Of a stretch of DNA of 53,982 nucleotides, positions 20,482 through 53,982 are shown one piece after another. The notes below the pieces were generated by a model. That model searched no databases and was not told the origin of the DNA. It saw only the letters and a list, made by a program, of their open reading frames with translations. How positions within the stretch are numbered: the stretch's first letter is position 1; every line of letters starts with the position of its first letter. Both the position numbers and the translations under genes were made by a program. This DNA comes from a virus, in the IMG/VR virus record IMGVR_UViG_3300028840_003311; one strand, written 5' to 3'.

Positions 20482-21504
20482 TCACAGCAAGCCATCCCCT
20501 GCGGGCGGCTCTTGACTGGGCCAGTCCGGTGGGCCTTCTGGCACGTCCGGGTACGCTGCTCGCTCGGCCAGAATCTGCCGAGCAGAAGGCCCGAAGGGCG
20601 TCGGCCTGCTCTCCACGATGTCCTCCCAGGCCTCCACGCCCAGGGCGTCAATGGTCCACCCATAGTAGGCCTCGCGCGGCCTGGCGCCTCCGGTCATCCA
20701 GGATGTATCTGGAACAGGCTGGCCCATCGCCTCCCAGGCTTTGAGCATACGCGGGCCTTGGGTCGTCTGGACCATCGTGGGGCGCCATGGGTTACGGCTG
20801 AGCGTCCCGCGCGCGGTGACCCATTTCGTTGCCCGGACCTGGAGCATCCTGATGTAGACGTCCAGAGTCAGCCGAGCGTCCTGGCCCACGTACTCAAGGA
20901 CCAGGTCGTGGGCCTGGCGCGTCCCAGGCTGGATACCTCTGGCCAGCAGGGCGGCCACGTTGGCGTCCAACTTCTGGCGGCTTTCGGGCCTCATCGCGTC
21001 CTCTTCGGGCCAGACGGCGGACCACAACACGGGCGCCAGGGCGCCGGACATCCCAGCCGTCTTGGAGCCTACGCCAAGGGCCTCCGCTATCTTGGCCAGC
21101 TTGACCATGTAGCCCATCTTGCAGACTTGCTGAAAGCCCGGATCGTACATCTCTAGCGCCAGGCGGGCCAGGCGGGCGGCCACGTCCGGGTCACGGGCAC
21201 CCTTGGCGATGGCGGGATAGTCAAACCCCAGGCCGTTCCAAGACACGATTTCATAGCCATCATTGGCCAAGCTCAACAGGAGCAGGGCGATGTCACGGAT
21301 CTGCGAATCGCTCATCTCCAAACGGTAGGGCTGCCCAGGGAGCGGGAGCGCCTGCCCATCGTTCGGGTGGAAAATGGTCGGGCCGGTGTCTCCGTCAATC
21401 ATCAGGCCAACACACGAGATTCCAAAAAAGGGCGCCATCATCCAGTCTCCGGACGGGAGCGGGCGCGCGATTTCGATGTCAAAGGCTGCCAGTTTTCTCT
21501 TCAT
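20482..21504 (-). CDS. DnaQ-like 3'-5' exonuclease fold protein
   Basis: Exo I AFDIE, Exo II WNGLGFDYP and Exo III YVGQDARLTLDVY motifs appear in the correct order. Confidence 0.7.
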   Translation of the reverse strand: MKRKLAAFDIEIARPLPSGDWMMAPFFGISCVGLMIDGDTGPTIFHPNDGQALPLPGQPYRLEMSDSQIRDIALLLLSLANDGYEIVSWNGLGFDYPAIAKGARDPDVAARLARLALEMYDPGFQQVCKMGYMVKLAKIAEALGVGSKTAGMSGALAPVLWSAVWPEEDAMRPESRQKLDANVAALLARGIQPGTRQAHDLVLEYVGQDARLTLDVYIRMLQVRATKWVTARGTLSRNPWRPTMVQTTQGPRMLKAWEAMGQPVPDTSWMTGGARPREAYYGWTIDALGVEAWEDIVESRPTPFGPSARQILAERAAYPDVPEGPPDWPSQEPPAGDGLL

Positions 21505-23924: not shown

Positions 23925-24394
23925 GCATCAGTTTGTTGTATGTCCTGCTGGATAGCTTGGGCGCGGGCCTGGGCGGCCACGAGCTCGGCCAAGGTGGGCG
24001 CGTGGTCCTGGTCCCATAGGTCGGCCAGGTGGGCGTCGTGGGTCAGGCGGGTTTCTAGCACGATGCTGAACCCACGGGCGCGAACCTGACCAAGGAGGCC
24101 TGCGACCTGGCCAGGCTCCATCATCACGGTGGCCAGCCCGCCCAGGCCCACGGCGGGCGCCGTGTCGGCAAGCATCCAGATGGCGCCCTCCGCAATCAGC
24201 GTATCGCTGATGTCGTCCAGGCGGGCCACAATCCCGTGAGGAAACCGTAGGCGCCTATTATGGCTCCATCGGGTGGCCTCCACGGAAATCAGGCCAGGGA
24301 CCGAGACGCCCACGAGCGTCCCGGTCAGGCTGTAGCCAAGTTCGGGGTCGGCCCCAAACGCCAGGGTCACTTCTAGCGGTGGATGGTTCACCAT
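23921..24394 (-). CDS. Hypothetical protein
   Basis: ATG 24394 after CAGGAG. Track ORF 23921-24481 trimmed. Confidence 0.55.
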   Translation of the reverse strand: MVNHPPLEVTLAFGADPELGYSLTGTLVGVSVPGLISVEATRWSHNRRLRFPHGIVARLDDISDTLIAEGAIWMLADTAPAVGLGGLATVMMEPGQVAGLLGQVRARGFSIVLETRLTHDAHLADLWDQDHAPTLAELVAAQARAQAIQQDIQQTDA

Positions 24395-25245
24395 CGGATT
24401 CCACTCCTGTAGCTTGTCCCCTTGAACGGGATGGCCTTGGACATCTCTGCCATCCGATCCAAAAGGGCTTTGCCCACCCACGGTTCCAAGTCTTTCGGGG
24501 CGGCGTTCGTGGTGATGATGGTCGGGCGCCCTCTATTGTAGCGAGAGTCCAGCGCAGTGTAGAGGATTTCATGCGTCCAATCGGTGGGCTTGGCCTTGTC
24601 GACGTCGTCCAGAACCAGAAGGCGGGCGCGTTTCAGTTCCGTCTCCACGGTAGCGGTTCGCTCCATACTGTCACGGTCAAACGTGGCCTTGAGCCTGCTC
24701 AGGTATTCGGGCCACACGCGAAAGTAGACGCGGTCCCACCCGTATTCCAGGACGGCGTTCATCACGGCGGCGGCCAGATGGCTCTTGCCCAGGCCGTAGG
24801 CGCCGTGGAAGATTCTCCATCGCTTGGCGCCCAGTTCTCGAGATATCAGGCCGTCAGCGTAGGCGCGCGCGGCGTCAAGCTGCCGTTCGCGGTGGGCCTT
24901 GTCCGGGCTCGGGCTGCCGTCCGGCTTGGTCAAGCTATAGCTATCAAACGTGTGGGTGGCCAGGCGTCCGTTAAGGCCTGCGGCCACACGGGCGGCAGCC
25001 ATCCGGGCGGCGTGTTCCTGGCATTCCTCTTTAGACTGGGCGGCCTGGGCCTTGTCGCAAGGGCATACGCCAGGCTGCCCAAGCATGATGACCATCCCCT
25101 CAAATTCGATGGGCGCGCGCGGGCGCGGCTGCCCACAGTGTTCACAGAAAACGGCGTGTTCCGCCAGGAGGGCGGCTTGGTCAGTTTCCCAACGTTCGTT
25201 GAAGGCGGCAAACTTGGCCCCCATCTTTCCTTGTGTCATCGTCAT
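24388..25245 (-). CDS. DnaC/IstB-like AAA+ helicase-loader protein
   Basis: Walker A GAYGLGKSH and Walker B LLVLDDVDK. N-terminal Cys cluster. ATG after AAGGAG. Confidence 0.75.
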   Translation of the reverse strand: MTMTQGKMGAKFAAFNERWETDQAALLAEHAVFCEHCGQPRPRAPIEFEGMVIMLGQPGVCPCDKAQAAQSKEECQEHAARMAAARVAAGLNGRLATHTFDSYSLTKPDGSPSPDKAHRERQLDAARAYADGLISRELGAKRWRIFHGAYGLGKSHLAAAVMNAVLEYGWDRVYFRVWPEYLSRLKATFDRDSMERTATVETELKRARLLVLDDVDKAKPTDWTHEILYTALDSRYNRGRPTIITTNAAPKDLEPWVGKALLDRMAEMSKAIPFKGTSYRSGIRW

Positions 25246-26008: not shown

Positions 26009-27151
26009 CTATTGGAAGGCGTGTTCTAGCGCCTGGGCCTGCTCGGCGGGCGCGGCCTGGGTGGCTCGGCCGTTTTTGCGGCCTTTTGCATTGATGGGCG
26101 CTCCGGTTCGCAGGCGGTCCAGCATCGTGTTCAAGATGCTGTGAAAACCCGTTTCAAACGGGGACGCGAACGAACGCCAGCTATGTTCACTTTGGGTGAT
26201 GGCCTGGATGGCTTGGGCAGTTTCCTGGGGTGTCGCGGCCTGGTCGCGGGCAGTGGCCCATCGTTCCAGTTCGCGCGGCCAAGCCTCGCGTTCTGCATTG
26301 TCCAGGCCGCCAGGCGTCCGGCCGACAAGCGCACAAAAGGCGGTAGCGGCAGGCGCCCACGGCTCCGGGCTGCCGTCGTCTTGAACCCACGCCCAGTTAC
26401 GGGCGGCCTGGGCGGCCTGAGTCTGCTGGGCCAGAGCCAGCCATCCCTCGGCCAGCCCTTGATCTCCTGGAACGAGGACCATCGGCGCGGCAGGCGCGGC
26501 GCCGTCCTGGGGTGGCTCCCCGCCTTCCCCCCAAAAGAGAAGAGCGTCCTCGTTTTGACCTAATCCTTCCTCTTGTTGTTTTCCTCCTTGTTGTTCTTTT
26601 CGTGTCCTTTTGTGACCCGGTGGTGGACCCATTTTTGACCCGACTGTGGACCCATTTTTGTCTCCACTGTCCAAGGGGACATTTTTGTCCCCACTGGCCA
26701 GGCGGGCGGCCAAGGTCTCGGCCAGGGCCTCGCGCTCCGCCCAGGTAAGTTCCAGCCCGTCTTGTTTCAGGGCGCGCGATACAGCCCTGCGAGACATTTC
26801 CAGCCTGGCTACAGCGACCACTTGGGCGTTTCTGGTCAAATCCTCGATCCAAGTGATGGAGGACGTGCCCATCTGGCGTTCGCGCGTCACATAGCCAGCC
26901 TTGACCAGGTTGGACATGCGGCGGGTGATGGTCTTTTCGGTGACGCCCATCAGGGCGGCCAAGCGTTCGCGGCCTGGGTAGCAAGAATCGGCCTGCTGGG
27001 CATGCATCAGCAGGACCAGGTACAAGCGGAGGGCGCCGTCTGTGACGCGGTGGTCCAAGGTGGCGGCGTGGTACAGGCCAGCCCACCCAGCGCTCTGGAC
27101 AACGTTCCTAAACTTGAGCGGGCCAAGCTGTAGATCGGATAGGGATACCAT
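26009..27151 (-). CDS. Winged-helix DNA-binding protein (replication-initiator/DnaD-like position)
   Basis: ATG 27151 after AAAGGAGCAGAAT. The segment RERLAALMGVTEKTITRRMSNLVKAGYV is HTH-like. It lies upstream of the DnaC-like gene. Confidence 0.55.
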   Translation of the reverse strand: MVSLSDLQLGPLKFRNVVQSAGWAGLYHAATLDHRVTDGALRLYLVLLMHAQQADSCYPGRERLAALMGVTEKTITRRMSNLVKAGYVTRERQMGTSSITWIEDLTRNAQVVAVARLEMSRRAVSRALKQDGLELTWAEREALAETLAARLASGDKNVPLDSGDKNGSTVGSKMGPPPGHKRTRKEQQGGKQQEEGLGQNEDALLFWGEGGEPPQDGAAPAAPMVLVPGDQGLAEGWLALAQQTQAAQAARNWAWVQDDGSPEPWAPAATAFCALVGRTPGGLDNAEREAWPRELERWATARDQAATPQETAQAIQAITQSEHSWRSFASPFETGFHSILNTMLDRLRTGAPINAKGRKNGRATQAAPAEQAQALEHAFQ

Positions 27152-27593
27152 ATTCTGCTCCTTTTGGATGTACATACAAGAACTGGCCATCCTCGGCGGG
27201 CGGGCGGGTGAAGTAGCGGGCCAGGCTGTAGGCGCCATCCGGGTTACAAATGGGACAGAGGCGCGGGGACTCTGCTCTGCATTTCAGGACCATCTCCACG
27301 GCCTGGTCCACAAGGTCCTCTTCCGGGACTGGGCCAAGGGCGGCCTCTGGCGGCCACGTGCGGGCCAGAATCAGCCCATTGGATGCCTGGGCTGCTACGG
27401 CGGATGTCAGGCCAGAGCCGTTCCCGCTGACGTGTTCGCCCAGGCGGAAGGGCAGCGGCCTGGCGGTAAAGCCAAGGTAGTGCTGGCAATGCAGATAGGG
27501 CTGTTCAAAGTGCAGCAGGTAGACCACGCCCAGTTCCCCACGGTAGCCCACGCGTCGGCGTTTGTCGTCGGTGTGAACACGGCGGCTATTCAT
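27108..27593 (-). CDS. GIY-YIG-like nuclease-fold protein
   Basis: VVYLLHF...HYLGFT...RLGEH resembles the GIY-YIG core. ATG 27593 overlaps the upstream stop. Confidence 0.45.
   Translation of the reverse strand: MNSRRVHTDDKRRRVGYRGELGVVYLLHFEQPYLHCQHYLGFTARPLPFRLGEHVSGNGSGLTSAVAAQASNGLILARTWPPEAALGPVPEEDLVDQAVEMVLKCRAESPRLCPICNPDGAYSLARYFTRPPAEDGQFLYVHPKGAEYGIPIRSTAWPAQV
27164..27179. promoter_or_regulatory. 16-bp near-palindrome TTGGATGTACATACAA abutting the RBS of the wHTH gene
   Basis: The minus strand reads TTGTATGTACATCCAA-AAGGAGcagaatATG. Related to sites at 16203 and 34342. Confidence 0.4.
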
Positions 27594-28101
27594 AGCGGGT
27601 CCTGTCGTGGCGGTAGTCTGCCGCAGCCTCGACCTGCTCATAGGCGTAGCGGATGGCCTCATAGATAACACTGCCCTTGGTGTCTGCATGGGGGAACGCG
27701 TCGGCCAGTTCGTTCAGCATGGCGGCCAAGCTGGCCTCCTTGCCCGTGGGCGCCCTGAACCATAGTTGCTCCCTGGCGTCGAACACAGGCGCGCGGCGCA
27801 AGCTCAAGCCTCGGCGTTTGGCCTCGCTTATCACGGCCGATTGTGTCCGCTTGGGCAGCCCTTGGGCGATTTGCTCCGCGGACTGGCCCTTTTCGGCCTG
27901 CTGGACCAGGAAGGCTATTTCTTGATCGCTCCAGGCGCCAGCCCTTCTATCCAGGCTGACCCTGAGCTTGTGGGCGCGGGCGTAGACGCTGGACGCGGTG
28001 CGCCTTGGGGACAGGAGTTGCCCTATCTCGGCGGCGGTACGTGTGCCAGCCAGGGCGCGAATCGTGCTATCGTCCTGCGGAGTGTACGGATTGCGAACCA
28101 T
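27586..28101 (-). CDS. DNA-binding protein with two Myb/SANT-like repeats
   Basis: Two W/Y-x-D-x-I motif repeats (YTPQDDSTIRAL..., WSDQEIAFLVQQ...). ATG after AAAGGAGC. First gene after the promoter at 28.15 kb. Confidence 0.5.
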   Translation of the reverse strand: MVRNPYTPQDDSTIRALAGTRTAAEIGQLLSPRRTASSVYARAHKLRVSLDRRAGAWSDQEIAFLVQQAEKGQSAEQIAQGLPKRTQSAVISEAKRRGLSLRRAPVFDAREQLWFRAPTGKEASLAAMLNELADAFPHADTKGSVIYEAIRYAYEQVEAAADYRHDRTRYE

Positions 28102-32959: not shown

Positions 32960-33757
32960 CTACCTGGCGTCTCTGGCCTCGACGGCATAATCGCGGACTT
33001 GGCGCGCTTGCCATTCGGCTAGCTCGGCCTCTTCGCTCTCCACGTGGAGGATGTAGGCGTCAAGGTATCTCTGGGCGTTCCGGATGGTGTAGCGCGTCCT
33101 TTCCACAAACTGGGCGCGTCCATATTGGCGGTATTGCTTGGCCATCAAATTCGTAATGTTCTCAGTTGAGATGTAGGCCTCGCGGTAGAGATCGGCCTCG
33201 GTTTGGTCCGCCGTTTGTTTGAGTCGGATGGCTATCAAGCGGAGGGCCTTCCAGGTTTCGCCCAGCTCAGCGCGGATCTGATCGGCCTGGGCCAAGAACT
33301 GCTCCGCGACCTCGGCGGCGGCGGCTTCTTTCATCTGGCGATCGCACCAACGGAGCGTTTCGATCGGGCCTCGCGTGTCCAGACGTTCGTGCAGCACGTT
33401 GACGGCATCGGCTCCGGCCTGGGCAATGTCTCTGGCCTGGTAGGTCAAGAACTCGTACACATAGCGCCAGTCCTCGCGGTCGGGCGGCGCTCCGTCCAGT
33501 TCCTTGACGATCTGGTCAATGCGGGCCTGGTTTCGTGCTATCAGGTCGCGCGTTTTCTTGGGCATACGGCCGGAGGGCGTTTTCGGGCCGTCCGGGCCTT
33601 TCAGCCACGTGTTCCGCTGCGTCCACTTGGTCATCCAGAGGCGGCGGCGGTCGCGGCCTTCGGGCGTCATCGGGTAGCGGGCTTTGGCGGCCTGCTGGGC
33701 CTCGGCCAAGGTCTCAAGGTGGGCGTCAAAAACGGTGGTTCGTTGGTCGGCGTTCAT
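32960..33757 (-). CDS. Hypothetical helical protein
   Basis: ATG 33757 after AAAGAGAG. Its leader is duplicated at 38347-38393. Confidence 0.6.
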   Translation of the reverse strand: MNADQRTTVFDAHLETLAEAQQAAKARYPMTPEGRDRRRLWMTKWTQRNTWLKGPDGPKTPSGRMPKKTRDLIARNQARIDQIVKELDGAPPDREDWRYVYEFLTYQARDIAQAGADAVNVLHERLDTRGPIETLRWCDRQMKEAAAAEVAEQFLAQADQIRAELGETWKALRLIAIRLKQTADQTEADLYREAYISTENITNLMAKQYRQYGRAQFVERTRYTIRNAQRYLDAYILHVESEEAELAEWQARQVRDYAVEARDAR

Positions 33758-33793
33758 CGGTCGGCTCTCTTTCTGGCCCAGGCGGGCCAAGGC

Positions 33794-34811: not shown

Positions 34812-35651
34812 TTATGCGGCCTGGGCCAGCCCCATCTCGGCTTGAGCCTGCTCAATGGCGGCCAGAATCGCCTCAACGTCCTTGAGGCTGGCCATCACTG
34901 CTTCAATGGGATCCTTGGCGTATTTTTGGATGTACGCCCAGCTATTGCCGGTCGTGTCGCCAATGTTGTAGAGGTCCATCAGGACGCTGGCCGTAAACTC
35001 GGCTACGGTTTCTTGCTCTTCTTGCTGGCCTCCTTTGATCGTCTCGCCCCTGGCCTTCAAAACGCGCGCGTGAACCGCGTGGGCCAGTTCGTGGAAAAAC
35101 TCGGCGGCGCCGTGGGTGCCCACCCGAATGGCGTCTTTGGTCGGGCTGTAGTCGGCCAGGCGGTCAGGAGGGAGAGGCGTCCACGTTGCTTTCACGCCCA
35201 TGTGGGTGGCCACGTCAACCAGCGGAGGCAGCTTGGTGGGCGCATAGTTGAAGTCGGGCAGCGGTTCGCCCTCGGTCGACTCCACCGGGAAAACGGGGAT
35301 CGTGCGGAACCGCGTAAAGGCTACAACCTTGTGGCCGTCCTCAACTAGGGGTTTTCCATCGGCGCCCTTCTTGTAGACGTTGATGGGCGCAAAGATGAAC
35401 GCGGCAGAGCTGCCCTTCTTGACCTGGCGACCAACTTCCTGCCATTGGCGGTAACCGCGGCAGTCCAAGCTACCTGTCTGCAAGTAGGCCAAAACGACGT
35501 TATTGAACGACCAATGCGCCATTGGGCAGTCGTCGTCCGGGTGCCGGGTTATGCGGGCGATTCTGGTCACGGGTGAGAGGTCGCCGGACTTGAGCCGTTC
35601 GACGACCGAATCAAGGGAGGCTTGGGCCTTGGCTGAAAGTTTGATTTTCAC
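34812..35651 (-). CDS. ArdC-like protein (ssDNA-binding N-domain plus HExxH metalloprotease)
   Basis: GYRQWQEVGRQVKKGSSAAFIFAP resembles the ArdC-N/DUF1738 motif. FFHELAHAVH is a zincin motif. GTG after AAGGAGCAGAACA. Confidence 0.7.
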   Translation of the reverse strand: MKIKLSAKAQASLDSVVERLKSGDLSPVTRIARITRHPDDDCPMAHWSFNNVVLAYLQTGSLDCRGYRQWQEVGRQVKKGSSAAFIFAPINVYKKGADGKPLVEDGHKVVAFTRFRTIPVFPVESTEGEPLPDFNYAPTKLPPLVDVATHMGVKATWTPLPPDRLADYSPTKDAIRVGTHGAAEFFHELAHAVHARVLKARGETIKGGQQEEQETVAEFTASVLMDLYNIGDTTGNSWAYIQKYAKDPIEAVMASLKDVEAILAAIEQAQAEMGLAQAA

Positions 35652-38025: not shown

Positions 38026-38349
38026 CTAGTCGGCTATTTCACACTCGCGGTGGAGGATGTCCAGGTAGTAGCGATAGGCCACCTTGGCCAGGCCATCGTC
38101 ACACTGCGTGATCTGCTGAAAGGCGACGATCTTGGCGGCGGTCAGTTCTCCGCGCGTTTGGGGGATGTGGATCGTCTCGTAGTCGAATCCCCAGGTGGTG
38201 ATGGTGATTTCGGTCGGCGTTTCGGAGTCCAGAGCCAGTTCCAAAACCCACGGCGTTCCCCATCGGTCTTTATACGTCCGGGCGTCCTGGTCGGCTATCA
38301 GGTGGGCGGTGGCCTGTTGGGTGGCCTGTTTCAGTGCTTTTGTCATCAT
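38026..38349 (-). CDS. Hypothetical protein
   Basis: ATG 38349 after AAAGAGAG-ccgaccg. The leader matches that of 32960-33757. Confidence 0.55.
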   Translation of the reverse strand: MMTKALKQATQQATAHLIADQDARTYKDRWGTPWVLELALDSETPTEITITTWGFDYETIHIPQTRGELTAAKIVAFQQITQCDDGLAKVAYRYYLDILHRECEIAD

Positions 38350-38385
38350 CGGTCGGCTCTCTTTCTGGCCCAAACGGGCCAAGGT

Positions 38386-38949: not shown

Positions 38950-38978
38950 TTGACAGGGCGCGCGTGATGTGTTACAAT
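38950..38978 (+). promoter_or_regulatory. Rightward sigma70-type promoter (divergent from 38872-38900)
   Basis: TTGACA-gggcgcgcgtgatgtgt-TACAAT has a 17-nt spacer and an extended -10 TG. Confidence 0.7.
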
Positions 38979-39025
38979 GAAGTTGTTCTGCTCCCAGGGA
39001 GGGCGCCCTGATGTCTTACTAGCGG

Positions 39026-39664
39026 GTGGGACTAAACCACAGGGCGCCCGCTCAATCGGTGGCTCTCACGCTGGGTGGCGTGACCACATACAAGGGACCA
39101 TCGCCCTCCCCCCCAGGCGGTGGTCCTTTGACAAAAGGCGGTGTCTTGGCTCAGCTTTTCATCTTCTTGGTCGTTGCGAACGCCATAGGGGGAGCCGGAA
39201 CCTCTTACGCTGGGGAGTTCGTTGGCCGCCCTCTTTATTGCTCTCCGCCAGGTGGCCCCCATCTCTACTACACCCAGGCCCAGCTACAACAGACGCCCTG
39301 GGTGGCCCTGCCCGTGGGCGGGACTTGGGCCTGCGGAGACCCGATTCTTGTCGTCCCCAACAATCCAGCCTGGGCGTCGCTTGTGGTCCAAGCCCTGGAC
39401 GCTGGGCCTCTGGATGGCTACTATGTGGGGCGGCATCCTATCATTGTAGACGTGCCTCGCGCTCTGGCGCCCTGGCCAGCCTTGAGCGCGCGCGTCAAAA
39501 TCGTCAACTTGGCCGTTTTGGTCAAGCAAGCGGAAAGGGCGACTGAATGTCCGATTCTACCGTACCTCAGAGCCAAGATGGCATTCTCCGGATCGAGTAC
39601 ATCCCACTGGCGCAGTTACTTCTCCTGGACGATAACCCCAAGCTGCATGACCTTGGCGCCCTGA
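39026..39664 (+). CDS. Membrane-anchored DPBB/3D-domain-like protein (lytic transglycosylase-like); start uncertain
   Basis: TM helix VLAQLFIFLVVANAI, then GEFVGRPLYC...WVALPVGGTWACGDPILVV...VQALDAGPLDGYYVGRHPIIVDVP. Alternative starts at 39079 (GTG) or 39129 (TTG). The 3' end overlaps the next gene by 118 nt. Confidence 0.45.
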   Translation: MGLNHRAPAQSVALTLGGVTTYKGPSPSPPGGGPLTKGGVLAQLFIFLVVANAIGGAGTSYAGEFVGRPLYCSPPGGPHLYYTQAQLQQTPWVALPVGGTWACGDPILVVPNNPAWASLVVQALDAGPLDGYYVGRHPIIVDVPRALAPWPALSARVKIVNLAVLVKQAERATECPILPYLRAKMAFSGSSTSHWRSYFSWTITPSCMTLAP

Positions 39665-40320
39665 TTGACTCCATAGGGCGTTACGGATTCAAGGACCCGC
39701 CCAAGTTCGAGCCGACCTTGAACGGCGGCAGCGGTGGCGTAGTGGAGGGAAACGGGCGGACCCAGGCGCTACGCTGGATGCAAAAGCAGGGGCGCGACGT
39801 CCCGCGTGGCATCGCCCTGGCGGAGGATGGAGACTGGGCGGTCCCGGTGTTGTTCGGCGTCGACGCGGAGAGCGAGGCGGCGGCCAAGGCGTACAGCCTG
39901 GACCACAACAACCTGACCTTGGCGGGCGGGGACTTGACCGCGTTCGACTACACACGCATGTATAGTGCAGACTACGTGACGTTCCTTGACGCCCTGGCCC
40001 AGGCCGACCAGCTCCCCGTGTCTATTGACGGCGACACGTTGGACACCCTGAGATTCCTCTCTGATGAGACGTTTGTGGGGGAAGAGATCCCCGACCTGGC
40101 GGGTTGGGAAGAGCCAGCCAAGGACCACAGGCTCATTGTCCAATGCGCCAGCGAGGGCCAGCTTGAGCGCCTGGCGATGCACCTCGGGCTTGAGTGGAAA
40201 TCTGGCCGTGTTCGCTTCCACTTCAGGGATACCACGCTGGCGACTGAAGAGGACCAGGAGACCGAGAGCGACGTGGACGCCCAGGTCGCGCCCAGGCTGG
40301 CAGATGACAGCCCACTATAG
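39547..40320 (+). CDS. ParB/Srx-fold N-terminal domain protein
   Basis: IEYIPLAQLLLLDDNPKLHD...VVEGNGRTQAL matches the ParB-like nuclease domain layout. Acidic C-terminus. Confidence 0.6.
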   Translation: MSDSTVPQSQDGILRIEYIPLAQLLLLDDNPKLHDLGALIDSIGRYGFKDPPKFEPTLNGGSGGVVEGNGRTQALRWMQKQGRDVPRGIALAEDGDWAVPVLFGVDAESEAAAKAYSLDHNNLTLAGGDLTAFDYTRMYSADYVTFLDALAQADQLPVSIDGDTLDTLRFLSDETFVGEEIPDLAGWEEPAKDHRLIVQCASEGQLERLAMHLGLEWKSGRVRFHFRDTTLATEEDQETESDVDAQVAPRLADDSPL

Positions 40321-41575
40321 GGCGGCTGACGACCTGCCAGCCTACGAGAGTCCGCGGTGGAGCCAGGAAATCACGGACTGCTCTATGCCTTTGACGCTGG
40401 ACCAGTACAGCCGGTGCGGATACGATTGCCAATACTGTTTTGCCTATTTCAGAAAAGCCATTGGGAACACAAAGGCTCGGTACTTGTCCAGGGGCGTGGG
40501 CGTAGTCGATGTGAACAAGGTCAAGCGCGTTTTCACAGATCCAGAGTATCCCCAGTTTGGCGCCTTCACACGCCAGCGTTTGGCTGTCCAATGGGGCGGC
40601 ATGGCTGACCCGTTCTGTCCCCTGGAGCATCGCTATGGAGTGGGCCTTGAATTGATCGAGTTCTTTAGGGAGCTGCGTTACCCTATCTCGTTCAGCACCA
40701 AGGGCACATGGTGGACGGAGGACGCGCGGTATGTAGAGCAGTTCAAAGGCGCCGACCACTTCCACGTCAAGATGTCCATTATCACCACAGACAAGGCCAA
40801 GGCCGCCAAGATAGAGCGCGGCGTCCCTGGGCCAGCCCTGCGTCTCAAGGCTATAGAGCGGATGGCCAGGTGGGGCATTGGCGGCATTACGCTGCGGCTC
40901 CGCCCATTCATCTTGGGCGTTTCCACGCCCAGCTACCTGGAGCTCATTCGCCAGGCTGCGGACGCGGGCGCGGAGGCTGTCAGCACTGAGTTTTTGTGCG
41001 TGGAGCTACGCACACCGGGCGCCAAGGCGCGCTACAGGAGAATCGGCAAGCTGGCTGGCTACCCTTTGATTGAGCAATATCAGCTACACAGTCCAGGCCA
41101 GAGCGGCTACCTGCGAGGATCCCGAGGGATGAAGGCGCCCTTTATGCGGTCGATGCAAGCGGAATGCGAACGCTTGGGCCTGCGGTTCTATGTCAGTGAC
41201 GCCCACTTCAAGGAGATGTGCGTGGGCGCGTCCTGCTGCGGCCTGCGGGAGTCCTGGAACTACTCTCGTGGCCAATTCACCCAAGCCCTGCTCATTGCCA
41301 AGGAGCGCGGGCGGGTGATGTGGTCAGACATCGCGCCAGCCTTGGAGTACGCGCGCGGCATCCCGTTTACCACTGCGACCGGATTCAATCAGACGTCCAG
41401 CGAAAAGCGTGGGCAGTTCCACAGTTGGAGCATGTTCGACTGGCTGCACTACCTGTGGAACCACGTCAACGGGCCACGTGGGCCTTACAAGTATTTCGGC
41501 GGCGTCTTGTTGCCGGCCGAGGACCTGGACGCGGCGGGCGACGTGGTCTATGTGTACAATGGAGAGGCGGCATAG
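40304..41575 (+). CDS. Radical SAM enzyme, SplB/COG1533-like
   Basis: CX3CX2C motif C-GYD-C-QY-C followed by FAYF. About 420 aa. The ATG overlaps the upstream gene by 17 nt. Confidence 0.7.
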   Translation: MTAHYRAADDLPAYESPRWSQEITDCSMPLTLDQYSRCGYDCQYCFAYFRKAIGNTKARYLSRGVGVVDVNKVKRVFTDPEYPQFGAFTRQRLAVQWGGMADPFCPLEHRYGVGLELIEFFRELRYPISFSTKGTWWTEDARYVEQFKGADHFHVKMSIITTDKAKAAKIERGVPGPALRLKAIERMARWGIGGITLRLRPFILGVSTPSYLELIRQAADAGAEAVSTEFLCVELRTPGAKARYRRIGKLAGYPLIEQYQLHSPGQSGYLRGSRGMKAPFMRSMQAECERLGLRFYVSDAHFKEMCVGASCCGLRESWNYSRGQFTQALLIAKERGRVMWSDIAPALEYARGIPFTTATGFNQTSSEKRGQFHSWSMFDWLHYLWNHVNGPRGPYKYFGGVLLPAEDLDAAGDVVYVYNGEAA

Positions 41576-42370
41576 ATGACCAGGTACCCGATCTACATAC
41601 CGTCAAAAGGGCGGGCGACTACGGCCTCTACGCCCAGGCTGCTGGGCGACCTGCCATACACCTTGGTAGTTGAGCCGACAGACCTGGGCGCATACCGTGA
41701 GTCCTTCCCGGGTGCAGACATCCTCGCGCTGGACACGTGCGACCGTGGGGCGCAATACGCACGCCAGGCCGCCCTTGCCCACGCCCGAGGCCTGGGCGTG
41801 GGCGCCTTGTGGCAACTTGACGACGACCTGACCGGGCTGTATCGCGTCGCGGCCGGAAAGTGTACGCGGTGCCCTGCTGCGGAGGCCCTGGCCTACGCGG
41901 AAACCCTGATGGACGCCCTCCCGCGCGTGGGGATCGTGGGGTTTGCTGTGCGCCAGTTCGCTTGGTCTGCAAGTAAAGCGTATGAGTGGAACAGATACCC
42001 GGTGATGTGCATCCTGGCCAGCACATCCACAGGCATCGACTACGACCCGGACATCTACCTGGCCGAGGACCTGGCCTTTTGGCTGGCCCACGTGGAGGCG
42101 TTTTGGCGTTCTATCAAGGTCAACGCTTACGCGGTGGCCGCCAGGCCGATGGCCAGCGCACACGAGGGCGGCTACCAGAAGATGTATTCTACAGAGAACG
42201 CGACTCGATACGGGAAGATGGTAGCCAGGCGCTACGCCCGATTTGTGGAGTTCAAGCCTTTGCGCCCAGGGGAATGCATTGGGTGGTCCCGTGTGCGCTA
42301 CGACGCCGTTGACGCTCACTTGGCCAGGCTGGGCAGCACCTCGGCCAGGCTAGAGAGGGAGGGCGCGTAG
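41576..42370 (+). CDS. GT-A-like glycosyltransferase (paralogue 1)
   Basis: N-terminal YPIYIPSKGRA and the DxD-type motif WQLDDDL. TAGATG junction with the upstream gene. Roughly half of positions are identical by eye to 42371-43147. Confidence 0.5.
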   Translation: MTRYPIYIPSKGRATTASTPRLLGDLPYTLVVEPTDLGAYRESFPGADILALDTCDRGAQYARQAALAHARGLGVGALWQLDDDLTGLYRVAAGKCTRCPAAEALAYAETLMDALPRVGIVGFAVRQFAWSASKAYEWNRYPVMCILASTSTGIDYDPDIYLAEDLAFWLAHVEAFWRSIKVNAYAVAARPMASAHEGGYQKMYSTENATRYGKMVARRYARFVEFKPLRPGECIGWSRVRYDAVDAHLARLGSTSARLEREGA

Positions 42371-43147
42371 ATGCTAAAATACCCGGTGTACATACCGTCG
42401 AAAGGGCGCGCGGGCCTGGCCACGACTCCGAACCTGCTGGGTGGCCTGCAGCCCATCTTGGCGGTGGAAGCGCCGGAGGCCGACGCGTACAAGGGCGCCT
42501 TCCCACACGCGGACATTCTGGCCTTGGACCCGGTGCGCGACCGCGGCGTACAGCGCGCGCGTCAAGCGTGCCTAGAACACGCTCGGCGCCTGGGCGTAAA
42601 GGCCCACTGGCAGCTCGACGACGACCTGACGCGGTTTTGCCGCGTGGAGAACCGACGTGCCAGGGACTGTTTCGCCGTGGATGCCCTGGCTTACGGGGAG
42701 GGTATCATGGACGCCTACGCGCGCGTGGGGATGGTGGGCTACAATACGCGAGAGTATGCCTGGGGCGCCAGGAAAGCATGGGACTGGAACAGGTTTGGGG
42801 CCAGGTGTGTACTAATCAATACGACCACAGGCATTGACTATGACCCGGGCCTGTTCCTTGCGGAGGACCTTGTTTTCTGGCTGGCCCACGTGGAGGCGTT
42901 TTGGCGGACCGTCAAGGTCAATGCCTACGGCATAACCACACAAGCCGTGTCCGGGGAGCTAGAGGGCGGGTGCAGCGATGTCTATAGCACAGAGAACGCG
43001 AACAGGTGTGGGAAGGCCGCGGCAGCGCGCATGTCTCGCTTTCTTGAGTTTTTGCCACTGAAACCGGGCCAGGTGATTGGATGGTCCCGCATTCGCTACG
43101 ACGCCATTGACGCCCACTTGGCCAAGTTTGGACAAAAGGAGGAATGA
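42371..43147 (+). CDS. GT-A-like glycosyltransferase (paralogue 2)
   Basis: YPVYIPSKGRA and WQLDDDL. Shares the conserved block GIDYDP..FLAEDL.FWLAHVEAFWR..KVNAY with its paralogue. Confidence 0.5.
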   Translation: MLKYPVYIPSKGRAGLATTPNLLGGLQPILAVEAPEADAYKGAFPHADILALDPVRDRGVQRARQACLEHARRLGVKAHWQLDDDLTRFCRVENRRARDCFAVDALAYGEGIMDAYARVGMVGYNTREYAWGARKAWDWNRFGARCVLINTTTGIDYDPGLFLAEDLVFWLAHVEAFWRTVKVNAYGITTQAVSGELEGGCSDVYSTENANRCGKAAAARMSRFLEFLPLKPGQVIGWSRIRYDAIDAHLAKFGQKEE

Positions 43148-44055
43148 ACGTGTCAGGCTGGGAGCCGCCCGCACAAGGATGGCCCAACTATTTCAAGGTT
43201 GAAAGCGTAGCAGGCTGTAACCTGTGGTGTTCCTTCTGCGGCATTCACGCGACTGGGTGGCCGCGGAACACGGTCGTGGGCGAAATGTCGCTGCCCCTGG
43301 CCAAGGCCATCGCCCTGCACATTCGCGGGATGCGGTCGCATCCACGCATTGACTTACAGATCCGCGGCGAACCACTGATGCATTCAGACCTTCCGGGCCT
43401 CATTCGCACCTTCCGCTATTTCATACCACGGGCGTCTCTGATGGTGGCCACAAATGGGCTGCTGCTGACAAGGGACCTCGGCGTGGCCCTGTTCAAGGCT
43501 GGGCTTACCACGCTTTTAGTGGAGCTCTATCGGCCCATCCGGGAACAGGTACGCGCGCTCAATCTGCCCGCAGAAGAACACGACTACCCAGGCGATTTCA
43601 GCCCTTGGCTATACCACACGGGCCGCCACATTGTCTATATGCCCTCCATAGGGGAGGGCAGCGCGGGCGGGCTGGCCCAAACGAGGCGGCTGACCAATCA
43701 CGCCGGAAATGCGGTCAAGGGCAGCGGACCATTGGCCGCCCCACTAGACAGCCCCTGTGCACATCCGTTCAGGGAACTGTCCATTTTCTATGACGGCCTT
43801 GTCCCCTTGTGTTGCAACGACTGGCGGGAGCAGGCTATCATAGGGCGTTTCCCGGACGACGGCGCCCTGGCGACCATCTGGCGTTCGGCCTGCTACAGCC
43901 ATGCGCGGGCGTTCTTGCGCGTGGGGAAAAGGGCCAGCTTGGCGCCCTGCGACGTCTGCGATGTCAAAACGACCAGAAACGGCCTGCTGCCCAGGGCGTC
44001 TACGCCGGACGCATTGGCCTTGGCTACCTGCGGCCTGGCGGCCAAGGAGGTGTAA
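43144..44055 (+). CDS. Radical SAM enzyme with SPASM/twitch-like C-terminal Cys cluster
   Basis: CX3CX2C motif C-NLW-C-SF-C. C-terminal CAHPF...LCCNDW...CDVCDV. ATGA overlap with the upstream gene. Confidence 0.7.
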   Translation: MNVSGWEPPAQGWPNYFKVESVAGCNLWCSFCGIHATGWPRNTVVGEMSLPLAKAIALHIRGMRSHPRIDLQIRGEPLMHSDLPGLIRTFRYFIPRASLMVATNGLLLTRDLGVALFKAGLTTLLVELYRPIREQVRALNLPAEEHDYPGDFSPWLYHTGRHIVYMPSIGEGSAGGLAQTRRLTNHAGNAVKGSGPLAAPLDSPCAHPFRELSIFYDGLVPLCCNDWREQAIIGRFPDDGALATIWRSACYSHARAFLRVGKRASLAPCDVCDVKTTRNGLLPRASTPDALALATCGLAAKEV

Positions 44056-44056
44056 C

Positions 44057-44818
44057 GTGGAGTATCTTGTTTGCGTGATTTCAAGCGGGCGCGCGGAGGC
44101 TATACGCGGCCTGACCTTGGGCTTGTTCCCTGATGCGCCGGTCGTGGTCCCCCCGGAGCAGGTCGCTGACTACGAGGCGGCGGGCTGCACGGCCATCCCC
44201 CAAAGTGGACGCGGTGTCTCTAACGCGCGGAACACTGTCTTGGACACGTTTGTGGGGGACCATAACGTCCTGATGCTTGATGATGACGTTCGCGCCCTGG
44301 GCCATTTCACCACGAAAAACAACAAGGACAAGGTCGTGTGGGATACGCCAGAGATGCGACAAGAGCGCCTGGGCCAGCTATTTGACGCCTTGGATCGGGC
44401 GCGCGGATGGGCCTTTTCCGGCGCGCCTACCACAAACGCATTCTACTACAATCCTCGCAGGCCTACCGCCACAAACCTGTTCTTGATCGGGACGTTCTCC
44501 GGATACCGCAAGGGCTGCCCGGTGCGCTATGACGAGACGCTCCCCCTCAAGGAGGACTACGACTTCACGGTCAAGGTGTGGAAAGCCTGCGGCCTGGCCC
44601 TGCGGTTCAATAACGTGTGGTGTGACGCCATCCACTATAGTAACGCGGGCGGATGTGTAGCTTACCGGGACGATGCTACGGAGGCCCAGGCCATCGCCAT
44701 CCTGAGAGAGCGTTACCCAAACTGGATCAAGCCTCACCCCACGCGCGGCGAAAACGAGGTCGTCCTAAAACTGCCGGACTATCGGGCGATGCTGGCAAGG
44801 GCCAAGAAGAAGGGCTGA
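44057..44818 (+). CDS. GT-A-like glycosyltransferase (third, divergent)
   Basis: GTG after AAGGAGG. LVCVISSGRAEAI (analogous to IPSKGR) and the MLDDDV DxD-type motif. Confidence 0.45.
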   Translation: MEYLVCVISSGRAEAIRGLTLGLFPDAPVVVPPEQVADYEAAGCTAIPQSGRGVSNARNTVLDTFVGDHNVLMLDDDVRALGHFTTKNNKDKVVWDTPEMRQERLGQLFDALDRARGWAFSGAPTTNAFYYNPRRPTATNLFLIGTFSGYRKGCPVRYDETLPLKEDYDFTVKVWKACGLALRFNNVWCDAIHYSNAGGCVAYRDDATEAQAIAILRERYPNWIKPHPTRGENEVVLKLPDYRAMLARAKKKG

Positions 44819-44821
44819 GCG

Positions 44822-45205
44822 GTGGCCAAGGTATCAGGCGACAAAAAACAGACGCGGGCCAGCCCACTGACCGTAGAACGCCGGGTGCATATGGTCTTGG
44901 TTATGATGTATGAGGGCTGGGACTCGTCGGCCATAGTTCCCAGGATTTCCGAGTTGTGGGACATCGGGGAGCGACAGGCGCGAAACTACATAAAAAAAGC
45001 CCTGGCCAGGAAGCAAGAGCTATCAAAGGAAATAGAGGCGTCGGCACTAGCGGACGCCATCGGCGCGCGTCGCGCCCTGCGGAGAGCATCGCAAGATGAA
45101 GCGTTCAAGTTGGAGGTCCTGCAAGACGAGGCGCGCTTGCTGGGCCTCTACGATAGGGAGGGCGCGGGCCAGGTGGCCGGTGTGCTCATAAGGATGGACG
45201 TGTAG
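44822..45205 (+). CDS. terS: Small terminase subunit candidate
   Basis: 127-aa HTH-like, coiled-coil protein immediately upstream of the large terminase. Confidence 0.5.
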   Translation: MAKVSGDKKQTRASPLTVERRVHMVLVMMYEGWDSSAIVPRISELWDIGERQARNYIKKALARKQELSKEIEASALADAIGARRALRRASQDEAFKLEVLQDEARLLGLYDREGAGQVAGVLIRMDV

Positions 45206-45379: not shown

Positions 45380-46792
45380 GTGGTAGTCCGGGCGGCTCAG
45401 CCAGAGGTGGCCTTTTCAGACCTTTGCCAATTCACCAAAAAACAGATGGCGGCCTGCGAGGCAGCGGACACCCACCTCTACACCTTGTACGGCGGCAGCC
45501 GTGGGCCTGGGAAGAGCTACTGGCTACGGTGGTATCTGATACGGCGTTTGTTGCAATGGGCGGGCACAGGGCACCGCGGCGTCCGGGTGGGCCTGTTCTG
45601 CGAGGACTACCCGAGCTTGACAGACCGGCAGATCTCAAAGATGGCCGAGTTTCCGCCCTGGCTTGGGCGGCTCCGGTCGACGCGCACAGACGGCCTGGGT
45701 TTCTATCTACACGAGTGCTACGGCGGTGGCGGCATCCTGCTGAGAAACCTGGACGACCCAACTAAGTACCAGTCTGTGGAGTTCGCGGGCCTGGCCATAG
45801 ACGAACTGACCAAGGATCCAGAGAGCGTGTTCGACATTCTCCGCGGCAGCTTGAGGTGGCCAGGTGTCACGGACCCATTCTTTGCCGCGGCCACAAACCC
45901 AAACGGGCGCTACTTCAAGTGGGTACGGCGGTATTGGATCGAGCGGGATCTGCCGGAGAATCTGGCCGGATGCGAGGATGACTTTGTCTATGTGGCCGCC
46001 CTGCCCGCGGACAATCCATACCTTGACGCAGGCTACTGGGCTATGCTCAACACGTTACCCAAGGCCCTGCGGCAGGCCTGGGTGGATGGGGACTGGTACG
46101 TGGGCGTGGATGGCTTGGTCTACGCCACATTCGGGAGCGGCAACGTGACGACCATTGACTATGATCCGGAGCGGCCTTTTGAACTGGGCGTTGATGATGG
46201 CTACGTGGACCCGCGCGCGGTCGTGTTCATCCAGAAGCAGGGCGCCCACGTCGTTGTCTTTGACGAGATCTACGAAAGCTACAAGCTGGAAGAGGAAACG
46301 GTAAGGGGCGTGTTGGCCAAGTGTTACAACTACAGCCCGTGGGCAGCCATTGATCCGCGGGCGCGGACCCGGGGGAAAAAGGACCCGTTCCCGGATGACG
46401 TGGACAAGAACACAGACCTGGCCAGGTGGCTACGTGAACGTAGCGTGAGGCTGCCCGAAATGGCAGCGGTGGCCCACGAAGCGGCAGCGCTGCGTAAACG
46501 GTTCCGCCAGGCGGACATTCCCGCGCGCAACTGGATGGCTAGGAAGGCGGGCGGAGGTGGCTCAACGCGCGCGGCGGCCATCCGAGAAACAAGGGCCTTG
46601 ATCTTGGATGGCCAGCGGAGGCGGACCCTGCTAGTACATCGGCGGTGCAAGAATCTGCTGGACGAGCTCCAAACGGGCTACAAAAACCGGGAGACGCGCG
46701 ACGGGTTTGTGGATGAGCCAGCGGACGGAAACGACCACGCTGCTCAAGCGGTAGAGAATTGGGTATGGCTCAGAGGAAGGGCGGGAGCATGA
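45380..46792 (+). CDS. terL: Large terminase subunit
   Basis: Walker A GGSRGPGKS and Walker B GLAIDEL, with a C-terminal nuclease-like half. The start is uncertain: GTG 45380 after GGAGGG, ATG 45446, or the track start 45242. Confidence 0.85.
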   Translation: MVVRAAQPEVAFSDLCQFTKKQMAACEAADTHLYTLYGGSRGPGKSYWLRWYLIRRLLQWAGTGHRGVRVGLFCEDYPSLTDRQISKMAEFPPWLGRLRSTRTDGLGFYLHECYGGGGILLRNLDDPTKYQSVEFAGLAIDELTKDPESVFDILRGSLRWPGVTDPFFAAATNPNGRYFKWVRRYWIERDLPENLAGCEDDFVYVAALPADNPYLDAGYWAMLNTLPKALRQAWVDGDWYVGVDGLVYATFGSGNVTTIDYDPERPFELGVDDGYVDPRAVVFIQKQGAHVVVFDEIYESYKLEEETVRGVLAKCYNYSPWAAIDPRARTRGKKDPFPDDVDKNTDLARWLRERSVRLPEMAAVAHEAAALRKRFRQADIPARNWMARKAGGGGSTRAAAIRETRALILDGQRRRTLLVHRRCKNLLDELQTGYKNRETRDGFVDEPADGNDHAAQAVENWVWLRGRAGA

Positions 46793-53754: not shown

Positions 53755-53982
53755 ATGTATGTAACAGGGCAAAGCCGGGGGATTGTCAATATCCCCGGTG
53801 GCTGGATATATGCCTTGTTCCCCATGGGCGCGGAAGTGGTCGAGTACCACTTGCGGGCCACGTGGAACAGCGCAGACGACCAAGGTTATGACGATGAACA
53901 GGTCTTGGACACCGTAGCAGAGGGCGTCGAGGACGGCTCCTTGGTCGTCAACGAGGATACGAATCGGACCTGGACAGTAGAA
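53755..53982 (+). CDS. 5' part of the LamG-like structural gene that continues at window position 1
   Basis: ATG 53755 after AAAAGAGG. No stop before the window end. In frame with 1-1260 through the 144-bp overlap. Confidence 0.6.
   Translation, partial: MYVTGQSRGIVNIPGGWIYALFPMGAEVVEYHLRATWNSADDQGYDDEQVLDTVAEGVEDGSLVVNEDTNRTWTVE
53839..53982. repeat. Terminal redundancy (identical to 1-144)
   Basis: See the feature at 1-144. Confidence 0.9.

Follow-up and report, generated by a model that had tools for sequence, protein, structure and literature searches.

The phage genome IMGVR_UViG_3300028840_003311 (53,982 nt, analyzed over its whole length and called the window below) carries a six-gene cassette that most likely sugar-coats phage DNA bases. 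The cassette encodes a ParB-like protein, two radical S-adenosylmethionine (radical-SAM) enzymes, rSAM1 and rSAM2, and three TET-associated glycosyltransferases, TAGT1, TAGT2, and TAGT3. To our knowledge, every described phage route to a hypermodified pyrimidine starts either with a thymidylate synthase (TS)-like hydroxymethylase that acts on the nucleotide pool or with an O2-dependent TET/JBP enzyme that acts on DNA. rSAM1 appears to stand in for these two enzyme types, which are known to prepare the base for decoration. On balance, we favor a reading in which rSAM1 makes a 5-hydroxymethyl-pyrimidine handle in DNA with no need for O2, on which the TAGTs and rSAM2 then assemble a tailored glycan. 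Together with at least 153 rSAM1 clusters (50% identity), mostly from gut and rumen phages, the cassette suggests a third way to begin, one that needs no oxygen, and rSAM1, as the initiating enzyme, has a substantial chance of representing a new reaction class. In literature searched to August 2026, we found no paper on the rSAM1 family, the ParB-rSAM1 core, or radical-SAM synthesis of 5-hydroxymethyluracil (5-hmU) in phage DNA.

Composition of the cassette

All six open reading frames (ORFs) lie on the + strand and span 39547-44818, at the positions given in an earlier sequence-only reading of this DNA, and an independent gene caller finds the same six genes when run on two further assemblies of this phage. 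Intergenic distances range from -17 to +2 nt, and the cassette runs directly into terS and terL. The ParB-like gene (stop TAG 40320) and rSAM1 (ATG 40304) overlap by 17 nt. rSAM1 and TAGT1 abut (TAG 41575, ATG 41576), as do TAGT1 and TAGT2 (TAG 42370, ATG 42371). TAGT2 stops at TGA 43147. For rSAM2, we prefer the GTG at 43150, which has GGAGGA 6 nt upstream and is also picked by the independent gene caller, over the ATG at 43144; this junction is thus a 2-nt gap with no ATGA overlap. rSAM2 ends in TAA 44055, and after 1 nt TAGT3 starts at GTG 44057, preceded by AAGGAGG. terS (GTG 44822) begins 3 nt past the TAGT3 stop (TGA 44818). The earlier description of the six genes as one coupled unit therefore stands at its junctions, except that rSAM2 had been started at ATG 43144. 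The motifs quoted in that reading are all present: CGYDCQYCFAYF, YPIYIPSKGR and YPVYIPSKGR, WQLDDDL (twice), MLDDDV, and CNLWCSFC.

TAGT1 (264 aa, 41576-42370), TAGT2 (258 aa, 42371-43147), and TAGT3 (253 aa, 44057-44818) all match the Pfam TAGT family (Pfam accession PF20691) above its gathering score of 27.5 bits (TAGT1, E = 1e-22, 81.6 bits; TAGT2, E = 3.2e-21, 76.7 bits; TAGT3, E = 1.5e-10, 41.8 bits). They also match phrog_842 (E = 5.8e-20, 2.3e-22, and 1.7e-16, respectively). The three DxD proteins had been suggested to be GT-A glycosyltransferases. Profile searches support this and narrow it, from a generic assignment to the TET-associated family. TAGT and aGPT-Pplase were reportedly defined by Iyer et al. 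in Nucleic Acids Research (NAR) in 2013. TAGT1 and TAGT2 are tandem paralogs (58% identity, E = 5e-111, BLASTP), and the divergent TAGT3 belongs to a different subfamily. The DxD motif reads QLDDDL in TAGT1 and MLDDDV in TAGT3. The DDD residues, along with N-terminal S/T-x-x-R, E-D, and G-G motifs, align across the three proteins and gp27 of Nonlabens phage P12024L.

PF20691 includes the T2/T6 beta-glucosyl-HMC-alpha-glucosyltransferase, which adds a second glucose to glucosyl-hydroxymethylcytosine (glucosyl-hmC) (PMC13216743), and the glycosyltransferases of phage TET clusters (PMC8256090). Its characterized members act on hydroxymethyl-pyrimidine DNA or its glucoside (PMC13216743, PMC8256090). 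TAGT3 is 32% identical to a glycosyltransferase of locus L090 (E = 2e-35) and 28% identical to GT-b of locus L013, and its cluster (C10) is present in 20 loci. Because the TAGT3 subfamily provides the sole glycosyltransferase (GT) of minimal ParB-GT-rSAM1 loci, we propose that TAGT3 would be the base-proximal transferase; TAGT1 is proposed to extend the glycan. TAGT2 gave no usable match in sequence and profile searches of the PDB. Among cultured phages, Vibrio phage 1.124.O (MG592499.1, L154) gives the best match to TAGT2, in the C-terminal portion of a hypothetical protein of 387 aa (6680-7843). This protein has an extra N-terminal region of ~110 aa and adjoins an N6-adenine methyltransferase and a dUTPase, with no annotated TET nearby.

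rSAM1 (423 aa, 40304-41575) resembles spore photoproduct lyase (SPL) in fold. Its AlphaFold2 (AF2) model has a predicted local distance difference test (pLDDT) score of 92.5, and the five best Foldseek matches in the PDB are all SPL (E ~1e-7), with a template modeling (TM) score of 0.55-0.59, normalized to the target, against PDB 4fhc and related structures. Weak NCBIfam matches to the COG1533-type models Rv2578c and PA0069 (E ~1e-15, 56.8 bits against a cut-off of 430) agree with the structural result, and the earlier placement of this enzyme in the SPL/COG1533 branch is borne out. PDB searches with the single sequence or a profile returned no sequence-level SPL match. Like SPL, rSAM1 has a CX3CX2C motif near the N-terminus; unlike SPL, it has ~80 extra residues, five or six additional conserved cysteines, and a modification context. 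Across 30 diverse members, 73 positions are invariant, including CX3CX2C (C38/C42/C45), C232, and a C311-C312 pair within an S-C-C-G motif. C26, C288, and C306 are nearly invariant.

Intein-like insertions of ~300-350 aa interrupt rSAM1 homologs at exactly two sites, one inside CX3CX2C and the other at S-C-C-G. Such recurrent intein sites imply that both motifs are functionally critical. Interrupted homologs include L136:8708-11179 and representatives P0241, P0255, P0260, P0269, P0335, P0341, P0322, and P0344. A megablast search of the cassette for cultured-phage relatives returned nothing, an rSAM1 tblastn search against cultured phages gave one weak match, and BFVD holds no rSAM1 ortholog (identity ≤16%); by tblastn and BFVD, no cultured phage has an rSAM1 ortholog. 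The SPL reaction passes through a thymine C5-methylene radical (PMC8989533). By analogy, rSAM1 is proposed to be the initiating enzyme, which would functionalize the C5-methyl group of a pyrimidine in DNA.

rSAM2 (301 aa, 43150-44055; 303 aa from the alternative ATG 43144) is a twitch/SPASM radical-SAM protein, as had been read from its cysteines. It matches Pfam SPASM above the cut-off (E = 7.8e-7, 29.7 bits against 21.5) and Pfam Radical_SAM below the gathering score (E = 2.3e-5, 25.0 bits against 29.5), with an invariant CX3CX2C. Invariant cysteines comprise C23/C27/C30 and a C-terminal C203/C221/C222/C267/C270 set. For its AF2 model (pLDDT 78.9), the best Foldseek match by a wide margin is BtrN (4m7t, E = 1.9e-14, TM 0.78), followed by AbmM and SpeY. 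rSAM2 shares its fold and a C-terminal auxiliary Fe-S cysteine cluster with these twitch enzymes, which act on sugars and aminocyclitols. Unlike them (~20% identity), it has a DNA-linked or nucleotide sugar as its predicted substrate, not an antibiotic precursor. From the model, we propose that rSAM2 may be a dehydrogenase of a DNA-linked sugar or of its nucleotide-sugar donor.

The company that rSAM2 homologs keep bears on the role of rSAM1. All nine contexts examined place the rSAM2 family in modification clusters of the hydroxymethyl-pyrimidine type. Its usual neighbor there is a TAGT or another glycosyltransferase; in L155 and L159, no TAGT lies within the flank of the rSAM2-family gene. 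In three unrelated representatives (L157, L160, L162), the gene order is HMUDK_hel - TAGT (one or two) - SPASM radical-SAM - Thymidylat_synt - DNA_pol_A, and rSAM2 is 30-38% identical to the SPASM radical-SAM proteins of these TS-type clusters. In L159, a prophage of Actinomadura litoris (GCA_022751195.1, JAICDF010000002.1, 63900-76877), the order is rSAM2-like - C5 DNA methylase ... ParB_N ... Tet_JBP - small terminase. rSAM1 is absent from L157, L160, L162, and L159. The TAGT and rSAM2 module pairs with ParB and rSAM1 in the window, L009, L071, and L146. Since this module pairs with TS or TET elsewhere and with ParB and rSAM1 here, rSAM1 fills the slot of the handle-making enzyme. We rejected the idea that rSAM2 makes the handle, given that TS or TET accompanies its family.

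The TS-type cluster is itself widespread in metagenomic phages (also L155, L158, L161, and L163, with one protein on >70 contigs). Its gene content implies a DNA with glycosylated, putatively radical-SAM-tailored hydroxymethyl-pyrimidines, and we found no description of a TAGT, SPASM radical-SAM, and TS cluster in the literature searched. L159 is a TET-type cluster in a cultured actinomycete and could be an experimental handle for the rSAM2 family.

The ParB-like protein (257 aa, 39547-40320) has a putative ParB/Srx-type N-domain (residues ~14-128) that contains the motifs NPKxHD and GNGR; its C-terminal domain of ~50 aa is conserved. It matches PHROG 620, 'ParB-like partition protein' (E = 1.8e-9), as well as phrog_498. 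Pfam ParB_N (PF02195) does not match the window protein and does match its L015 ortholog; sequence and profile searches of the PDB gave no usable match. A non-circular local hidden Markov model built from 66 loci matches the window protein over its full length (E = 2.4e-11).

Handle-making enzymes of the known routes are absent from the window. Pfam and PHROG scans of all called genes revealed no TS-like, TET/JBP, C5-methyltransferase (C5-MTase), or DNA polymerase gene, and no kinase, amino-acid:DNA transferase (ADDT), or pyridoxal-phosphate (PLP) enzyme. Six-frame searches of the window with a TS seed (gp58 of Pseudomonas phage M6), a TET profile, and a C5-MTase seed were also negative. In control loci, the same seeds were positive (TS, E = 1e-32 to 1e-82; TET, E = 9e-58). 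Neither supplier of a TAGT acceptor, a PF12851 TET/JBP enzyme or a TS-type hydroxymethylase, was thus found in the whole window. The sequence-only reading had seen no hallmark modification enzymes; this is correct for the handle-makers and not for PF20691, which is itself a hallmark of hydroxymethyl-pyrimidine routes.

The ParB-rSAM1 core in other loci

We identified 1,769 rSAM1 homologs by word-indexed search. An exhaustive search of 1.84 billion representatives yielded 153 rSAM1 clusters (50% identity) at E ≤ 1e-30 and 1,413 at E ≤ 1e-3. For genomic context, we collected 80 IMG/VR loci, 48 GTDB loci, and others, and dereplicated them to 91 loci at 95% rSAM1 identity. Neighboring genes within flanks of +/-10 kb were clustered, and the clusters were named by Pfam. 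ParB and rSAM1 form a widespread uncharacterized core. The local ParB model identifies ParB in 54 of 55 well-flanked loci, and the exception (L089) has a divergent ParB-like ORF by eye. In 52 of 67 loci, TerL follows rSAM1 within five genes. Gut, rumen, and termite anaerobes are the source of almost all of the 48 genome-derived loci, which include prophages in Segatella copri chromosomes. No TS homolog was found within +/-10 kb in ~150 loci.

The two kinds of decoration module are almost never combined around this core. Among the 55 well-flanked loci, 34 encode a P-loop kinase and/or an ADDT (Pfam accession PF18724), often with a GNAT protein, and 13 encode a TAGT, sometimes with a HAD/kinase and a cytidylyltransferase. 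None encodes both a kinase/ADDT and a TAGT, and eight encode neither; some of these eight have GT2 or GT-B-like glycosyltransferases, a B12-binding radical-SAM protein, or DUF362. Loci L020-22 carry close orthologs of M6 gp51, gp52, and gp53 with ParB-rSAM1 inserted alongside and no TS. ASCH-domain proteins occur in eight loci, and a SAM synthetase (MetK) lies beside ParB-rSAM1 in 18 of the 91 (for example, L148:6169-7206, L025, L101, and L105).

rSAM1 itself does not follow these modules. rSAM1 proteins from TAGT-class and kinase/ADDT-class loci can be 80-83% identical over their full length (BLASTP), and the nearest rSAM1 neighbor is from the other class in 32 of 75 cases. Because rSAM1 does not co-vary with decoration, one enzyme would serve both classes, which points to a common upstream substrate. 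Independent fusions join rSAM1 to both kinds of partner, evidence that it works in one pathway with the decorating enzymes. TAGT and rSAM1 are fused, in either order, in nine separate representative clusters and in L028, as TAGT-rSAM1 (P0242, P0244, P0258, L028) or rSAM1-TAGT (P0247, P0248, P0251, P0255, P0256). L144 encodes an rSAM1-kinase fusion, and P0259 is a kinase-rSAM1-TAGT triple fusion.

Several variants of the core were also observed. L051, L052, and L054 are minimal loci (ParB - GNAT acetyltransferase - rSAM1 - terminase) with no kinase, ADDT, or glycosyltransferase, and in our class-A loci, GNAT always directly precedes rSAM1. In L028, L037, L038, and L096, a second, shorter rSAM1-like paralog (~280 aa) lies just upstream of ParB, beside the full-length rSAM1. 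In L151:9339-13929 and L087:11248-13282, rSAM1 is followed by a B12-binding radical-SAM protein and a TAGT-like protein. L151 also has an MT-A70 methyltransferase, and its phage carries genes for DNA polymerase A, gp32, and RecA. The gene content of these two loci suggests another putative tailoring chemistry on the ParB-rSAM1 core.

A candidate pathway and its alternatives

The cassette shares features with several known systems. Phage TET/JBP clusters combine a C5-MTase, TET, and TAGT, often with ParB, beside the terminase (Burke et al., 2021, PMC8256090), and Aravind and co-workers suggested that ParB targets the enzymes to phage DNA in these clusters (PMC8256090). In a cultured example, Nonlabens phage P12024L, gp26 (PF12851), gp27 (TAGT), and gp28 (methyltransferase) are adjacent. 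The window resembles such clusters in its glycosyltransferases (TAGT1 and TAGT2 are 25% identical to P12024L gp27, E ~1e-20), ParB-like gene, terminase proximity, and apparent logic of making a handle and then glycosylating it. Unlike TET clusters, it has an SPL-like radical-SAM enzyme in place of TET/JBP and C5-MTase, and it adds a BtrN-like radical-SAM enzyme and has three glycosyltransferases.

The Pseudomonas phage M6 pathway uses a dUMP hydroxymethylase, the 5-hydroxymethyluridine DNA kinase (5-HMUDK) gp54, the amino-acid:DNA transferase gp51, the PLP enzyme gp52, and the isomerase gp53 (Lee et al., 2021, PMC8989533). In thymidine-hypermodification clusters published so far, a dUMP hydroxymethylase or TET is usually close by (PMC8989533). 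As in M6, an SPL-like radical-SAM enzyme sits within a hypermodification cluster, and most rSAM1 relatives adjoin an ADDT and a P-loop kinase. Unlike M6, the window has only a distant gp53 paralog in rSAM1 and has no kinase, ADDT, PLP enzyme, TS-like enzyme, or DNA polymerase, and its predicted decoration is a sugar, whereas that of M6 is an amino acid. The cassette is thus not a member of the TET or M6 type, because the defining enzymes of both are absent. The earlier statement that it fits no described pathway is accurate for the missing handle-making enzyme and less so for the rest, given the gp53 precedent (PMC8989533) and the recurrence of the TAGT and BtrN-like module.

The TS-type clusters of L157, L160, and L162 have the same pair of TAGT and rSAM2-family genes. 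In these phages, which lack ParB and rSAM1, the modified nucleotide is made before replication by the TS-like enzyme together with a polymerase of their own; the window phage, unlike them, has neither.

In base J of kinetoplastids, the thymine hydroxylases JBP1 and JBP2 act first and the glucosyltransferase JGT follows. The predicted course in the phage, from thymine to 5-hmU to O-glycosylation, is a functional analogy to base J. It would differ in the hydroxylase, which is an O2- and 2-oxoglutarate-dependent dioxygenase in JBP and a proposed radical-SAM enzyme here, and in the predicted use of several sugars and radical-SAM tailoring.

The gene structure, the families and folds, the lack of known handle-making enzymes across the genome, and the comparative patterns are observations; which base is the substrate, how rSAM1 reacts, in what order the glycosyltransferases act, and what ParB does are inferred as follows. 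The cassette would be a post-replicative DNA hypermodification pathway, co-expressed with the packaging genes. The ParB-like protein would target the enzymes to phage DNA around the time of packaging. rSAM1 would bind DNA as SPL does and flip out a thymine, and its 5'-deoxyadenosyl radical would take a hydrogen from the C5-methyl group, producing the same thymine-methylene radical as in the SPL and gp53 reactions. This allylic radical would be oxidized, with the additional conserved cysteines or an auxiliary cluster as the probable route for the electron, and trapped by water to yield 5-hmU without O2. TAGT3 would attach the first sugar to the hydroxyl, and TAGT1 and TAGT2 would add more. The BtrN-like rSAM2 would then oxidize a sugar hydroxyl, tailoring the glycan. 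The end result would be an oligoglycosylated thymidine resembling base J, which may shield the DNA from host nucleases.

Several observations are consistent with this pathway. By the precedent of M6, the kinase and transferase partners and the TAGTs would both need a hydroxymethyl group in DNA. Stoichiometric consumption of one SAM per base would explain the neighboring SAM synthetase genes. O2 independence would account for the predominance of anaerobic habitats, in which a TET, needing O2, could contribute little. We advance more tentatively the fuller proposal that rSAM1 may found a family of O2-independent radical-SAM enzymes that hydroxylate or otherwise functionalize the C5-methyl of DNA thymine, a third handle route delivered by ParB and served by interchangeable decoration modules, with base-J-like oligoglycosylated thymidine as the product here.

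If true, this would show how DNA hypermodification is achieved by phages of strict anaerobes and by those with no DNA polymerase of their own. It would also describe a new type of radical-SAM reaction, the functionalization of a base within duplex DNA, and ParB and rSAM1 would provide a portable two-gene tool for writing 5-hmU-type handles into DNA. Restriction, CRISPR, and sequencing behavior would be affected in gut viromes.

A number of points weigh against this reading. First, we know of no radical-SAM enzyme that hydroxylates a DNA base, and the chemistry of rSAM1 is drawn by analogy only. Second, ~35 window ORFs match no family, making a cryptic handle-making enzyme possible. Third, relatives were inspected to +/-10 kb only, a range in which a more distant TS or TET would be missed, and 15 of ~150 loci have a C5-MTase 6-8 kb upstream, which would allow a cytosine-based chemistry in some relatives. 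Fourth, the kinases match Ploopntkinase3 and not HMUDK_HMUD1, the family of M6 gp54, to which their resemblance is weak (best E = 6e-9). Fifth, host names from metagenome bins are unreliable, and the host of the window phage may be aerobic or facultative, given the phage's GcrA-like gene and 62% G+C. Finally, in L090 (7761-13325) and L093, the only lineage with both enzymes, a TET/JBP homolog (E = 8.6e-44) lies inside a ParB-TET-ParB-rSAM1-TAGT-rSAM2 cluster. This cluster does not adjoin a terminase, and a cupin/mannose-6-phosphate-isomerase-like gene follows rSAM2. Having both could reflect oxic/anoxic redundancy, two substrate bases, or a different role for rSAM1. A strict rule that rSAM1 replaces TET was rejected, because this lineage carries both.

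The TET gene directly beside rSAM1 in L090 and L093 also fits an alternative that we regard as unlikely, in which the DNA is glycosylated on a handle supplied by an unrecognized phage gene or the host, and rSAM1 carries out another step, such as radical rearrangement or cleavage of a C5-CH2-O-X adduct. There is a precedent in M6 gp53, an SPL-like radical-SAM isomerase with a late place in its pathway, where its substrate is N-alpha-glycinylthymidine (PMC8989533), and the many window ORFs with no family match leave room for an unrecognized gene. However, rSAM1 is only 22% identical to gp53 over 198 aa (pairwise E = 5e-6), and true gp53 orthologs (E = 1e-98 to 1e-114) coexist with rSAM1 in L015 and L020-22. 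We therefore rejected rSAM1 as a gp53 ortholog, and the low identity and co-occurrence indicate that the two are not isofunctional. A late step also fits poorly with the identity of up to 83% between rSAM1 proteins from loci whose predicted adducts are chemically unrelated (sugar versus phosphate or amino acid), with the ParB and rSAM1 loci that have no decorating enzyme at all, and with the TS-type and TET-type clusters that have TAGT and rSAM2 and no rSAM1.

A different product of rSAM1 is less probable still. ParB and rSAM1 would in this case install another primary group, either a 5'-deoxyadenosyl or other SAM-derived group or one arising from Cys-Cys-dependent C-methylation or methylenation, and the kinases and glycosyltransferases would decorate its hydroxyls. 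Radical-SAM enzymes that add an adenosyl radical to alkenes are known (MqnE and HpnH). The invariant S-C-C-G, as an intein hot spot, suggests a catalytic role for the cysteine pair; SAM synthetase is a frequent neighbor; and B12-binding radical-SAM enzymes accompany rSAM1 in L087 and L151. The partners argue otherwise, as ADDT, the M6 gp51-53 orthologs, and TAGT are elsewhere tied to 5-hydroxymethyl-pyrimidines, and TAGT and rSAM2 accompany TS or TET in other phages, which implies a shared acceptor chemistry.

The sequence-only reading had proposed DNA as the target of the cassette and, as an alternative, glycosylation and radical modification of virion proteins. DNA remains the best supported target, since the recurrent partners of the core all belong to DNA-directed enzyme families. 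Modification of virion proteins is very improbable. Mycobacteriophage glycosyltransferases do glycosylate virions, and the cassette heads the structural operon, but PF20691 members of known activity act on DNA, and the core pairs a ParB-like DNA-binding protein with an SPL-like enzyme. The partners across the 91 loci (ADDT, a P-loop kinase resembling 5-hydroxymethyldeoxyuridine (5-hmdU) kinase, and ASCH proteins) are likewise DNA enzymes, which leaves the virion-protein proposal unsupported, and TET clusters also adjoin ParB and the terminase (PMC8256090). It is equally hard to credit rSAM1 as a genuine SPL-type DNA repair enzyme unrelated to the glycosyltransferases, as its SPL Foldseek matches and the 'DNA repair photolyase' label given to some homologs by Joint Genome Institute (JGI) annotators are set against the lack of a sequence-level SPL match in the PDB searches, the mainly dark and anoxic gut and rumen origin of the loci, the tight operonic coupling, repeated fusion to TAGT and kinase, and the near-universal ParB partnership.

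The genome around the cassette

Window positions 1-144 recur at 53839-53982; the first 100 nt were matched exactly, and the repeat extends to the contig end. An independent ENA assembly from another sample (53,979 bp) begins at a different point. This terminal overlap of 144 nt and the differing start indicate that the window is a complete circular phage genome, with a true length of ~53,838 bp (~53.8 kb) once the circular-assembly overlap is removed. No tRNAs were found in the window.

Downstream of the cassette, a 127-aa protein (44822-45205, + strand) is a candidate small terminase from its position. It has no family match in Pfam or PHROG; in related loci, a small-terminase-like gene comes after rSAM1. 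The large terminase (45380-46792, + strand; 470 aa by the independent gene caller, with the ORF open from 45242) matches phrog_2 (E = 1.4e-18). Its matches are only 27-30% identical, to phages of unrelated hosts. The rightward arm also encodes portal/MuF, S78 protease, and HK97-gp10-like proteins, as identified by Pfam and PHROG scans.

Two divergent promoter candidates occupy the 38.8-39.0 kb gap that separates the leftward early genes from the rightward operon. One is a TG-extended, sigma-70-like candidate (TTGACA-17-TACAAT, 38950-38978, + strand) at the head of the rightward operon, and the other is its mirror image for the leftward early genes (38900-38872). Both candidates are based on consensus matching only (11 of 12 positions), at a stringency that gives 4 sites where 1.4 are expected. 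The first gene of the rightward operon is a 212-aa ORF (39026-39664, + strand) that overlaps the ParB start by 118 nt. It has an N-terminal hydrophobic helix and, by eye, a double-psi-beta-barrel/RlpA-like region, with no PHROG match. G+C content at third codon positions (GC3) supports its frame over that of a publicly called gene (38977-39546).

The leftward early arm (15241-38830, - strand) was annotated by Pfam and PHROG scans of its called genes. It encodes FtsK/HerA-like (16497-18224), RNase-H-fold (20482-21504), Erf/Rad52 (21578-22972), DnaC/IstB-like (24388-25245), HTH_36 (26009-27238), GcrA-like (27586-28101), and ArdC-like (34812-35651) proteins, and ~20 further ORFs with no family match. 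The GcrA-like gene hints at a possible alphaproteobacterial host. A 38-nt element, CCTTGGCCCGYYTGGGCCAGAAAGAGAGCCGACCGATG, occurs twice in this arm (33755-33792 and 38347-38384, both - strand), with zero copies expected by chance. Each copy ends in a start codon, the two belonging to separate leftward early genes, and is preceded by a GGGCGCC...GGCGCCC inverted repeat. The element is possibly a shared leader or regulatory site.

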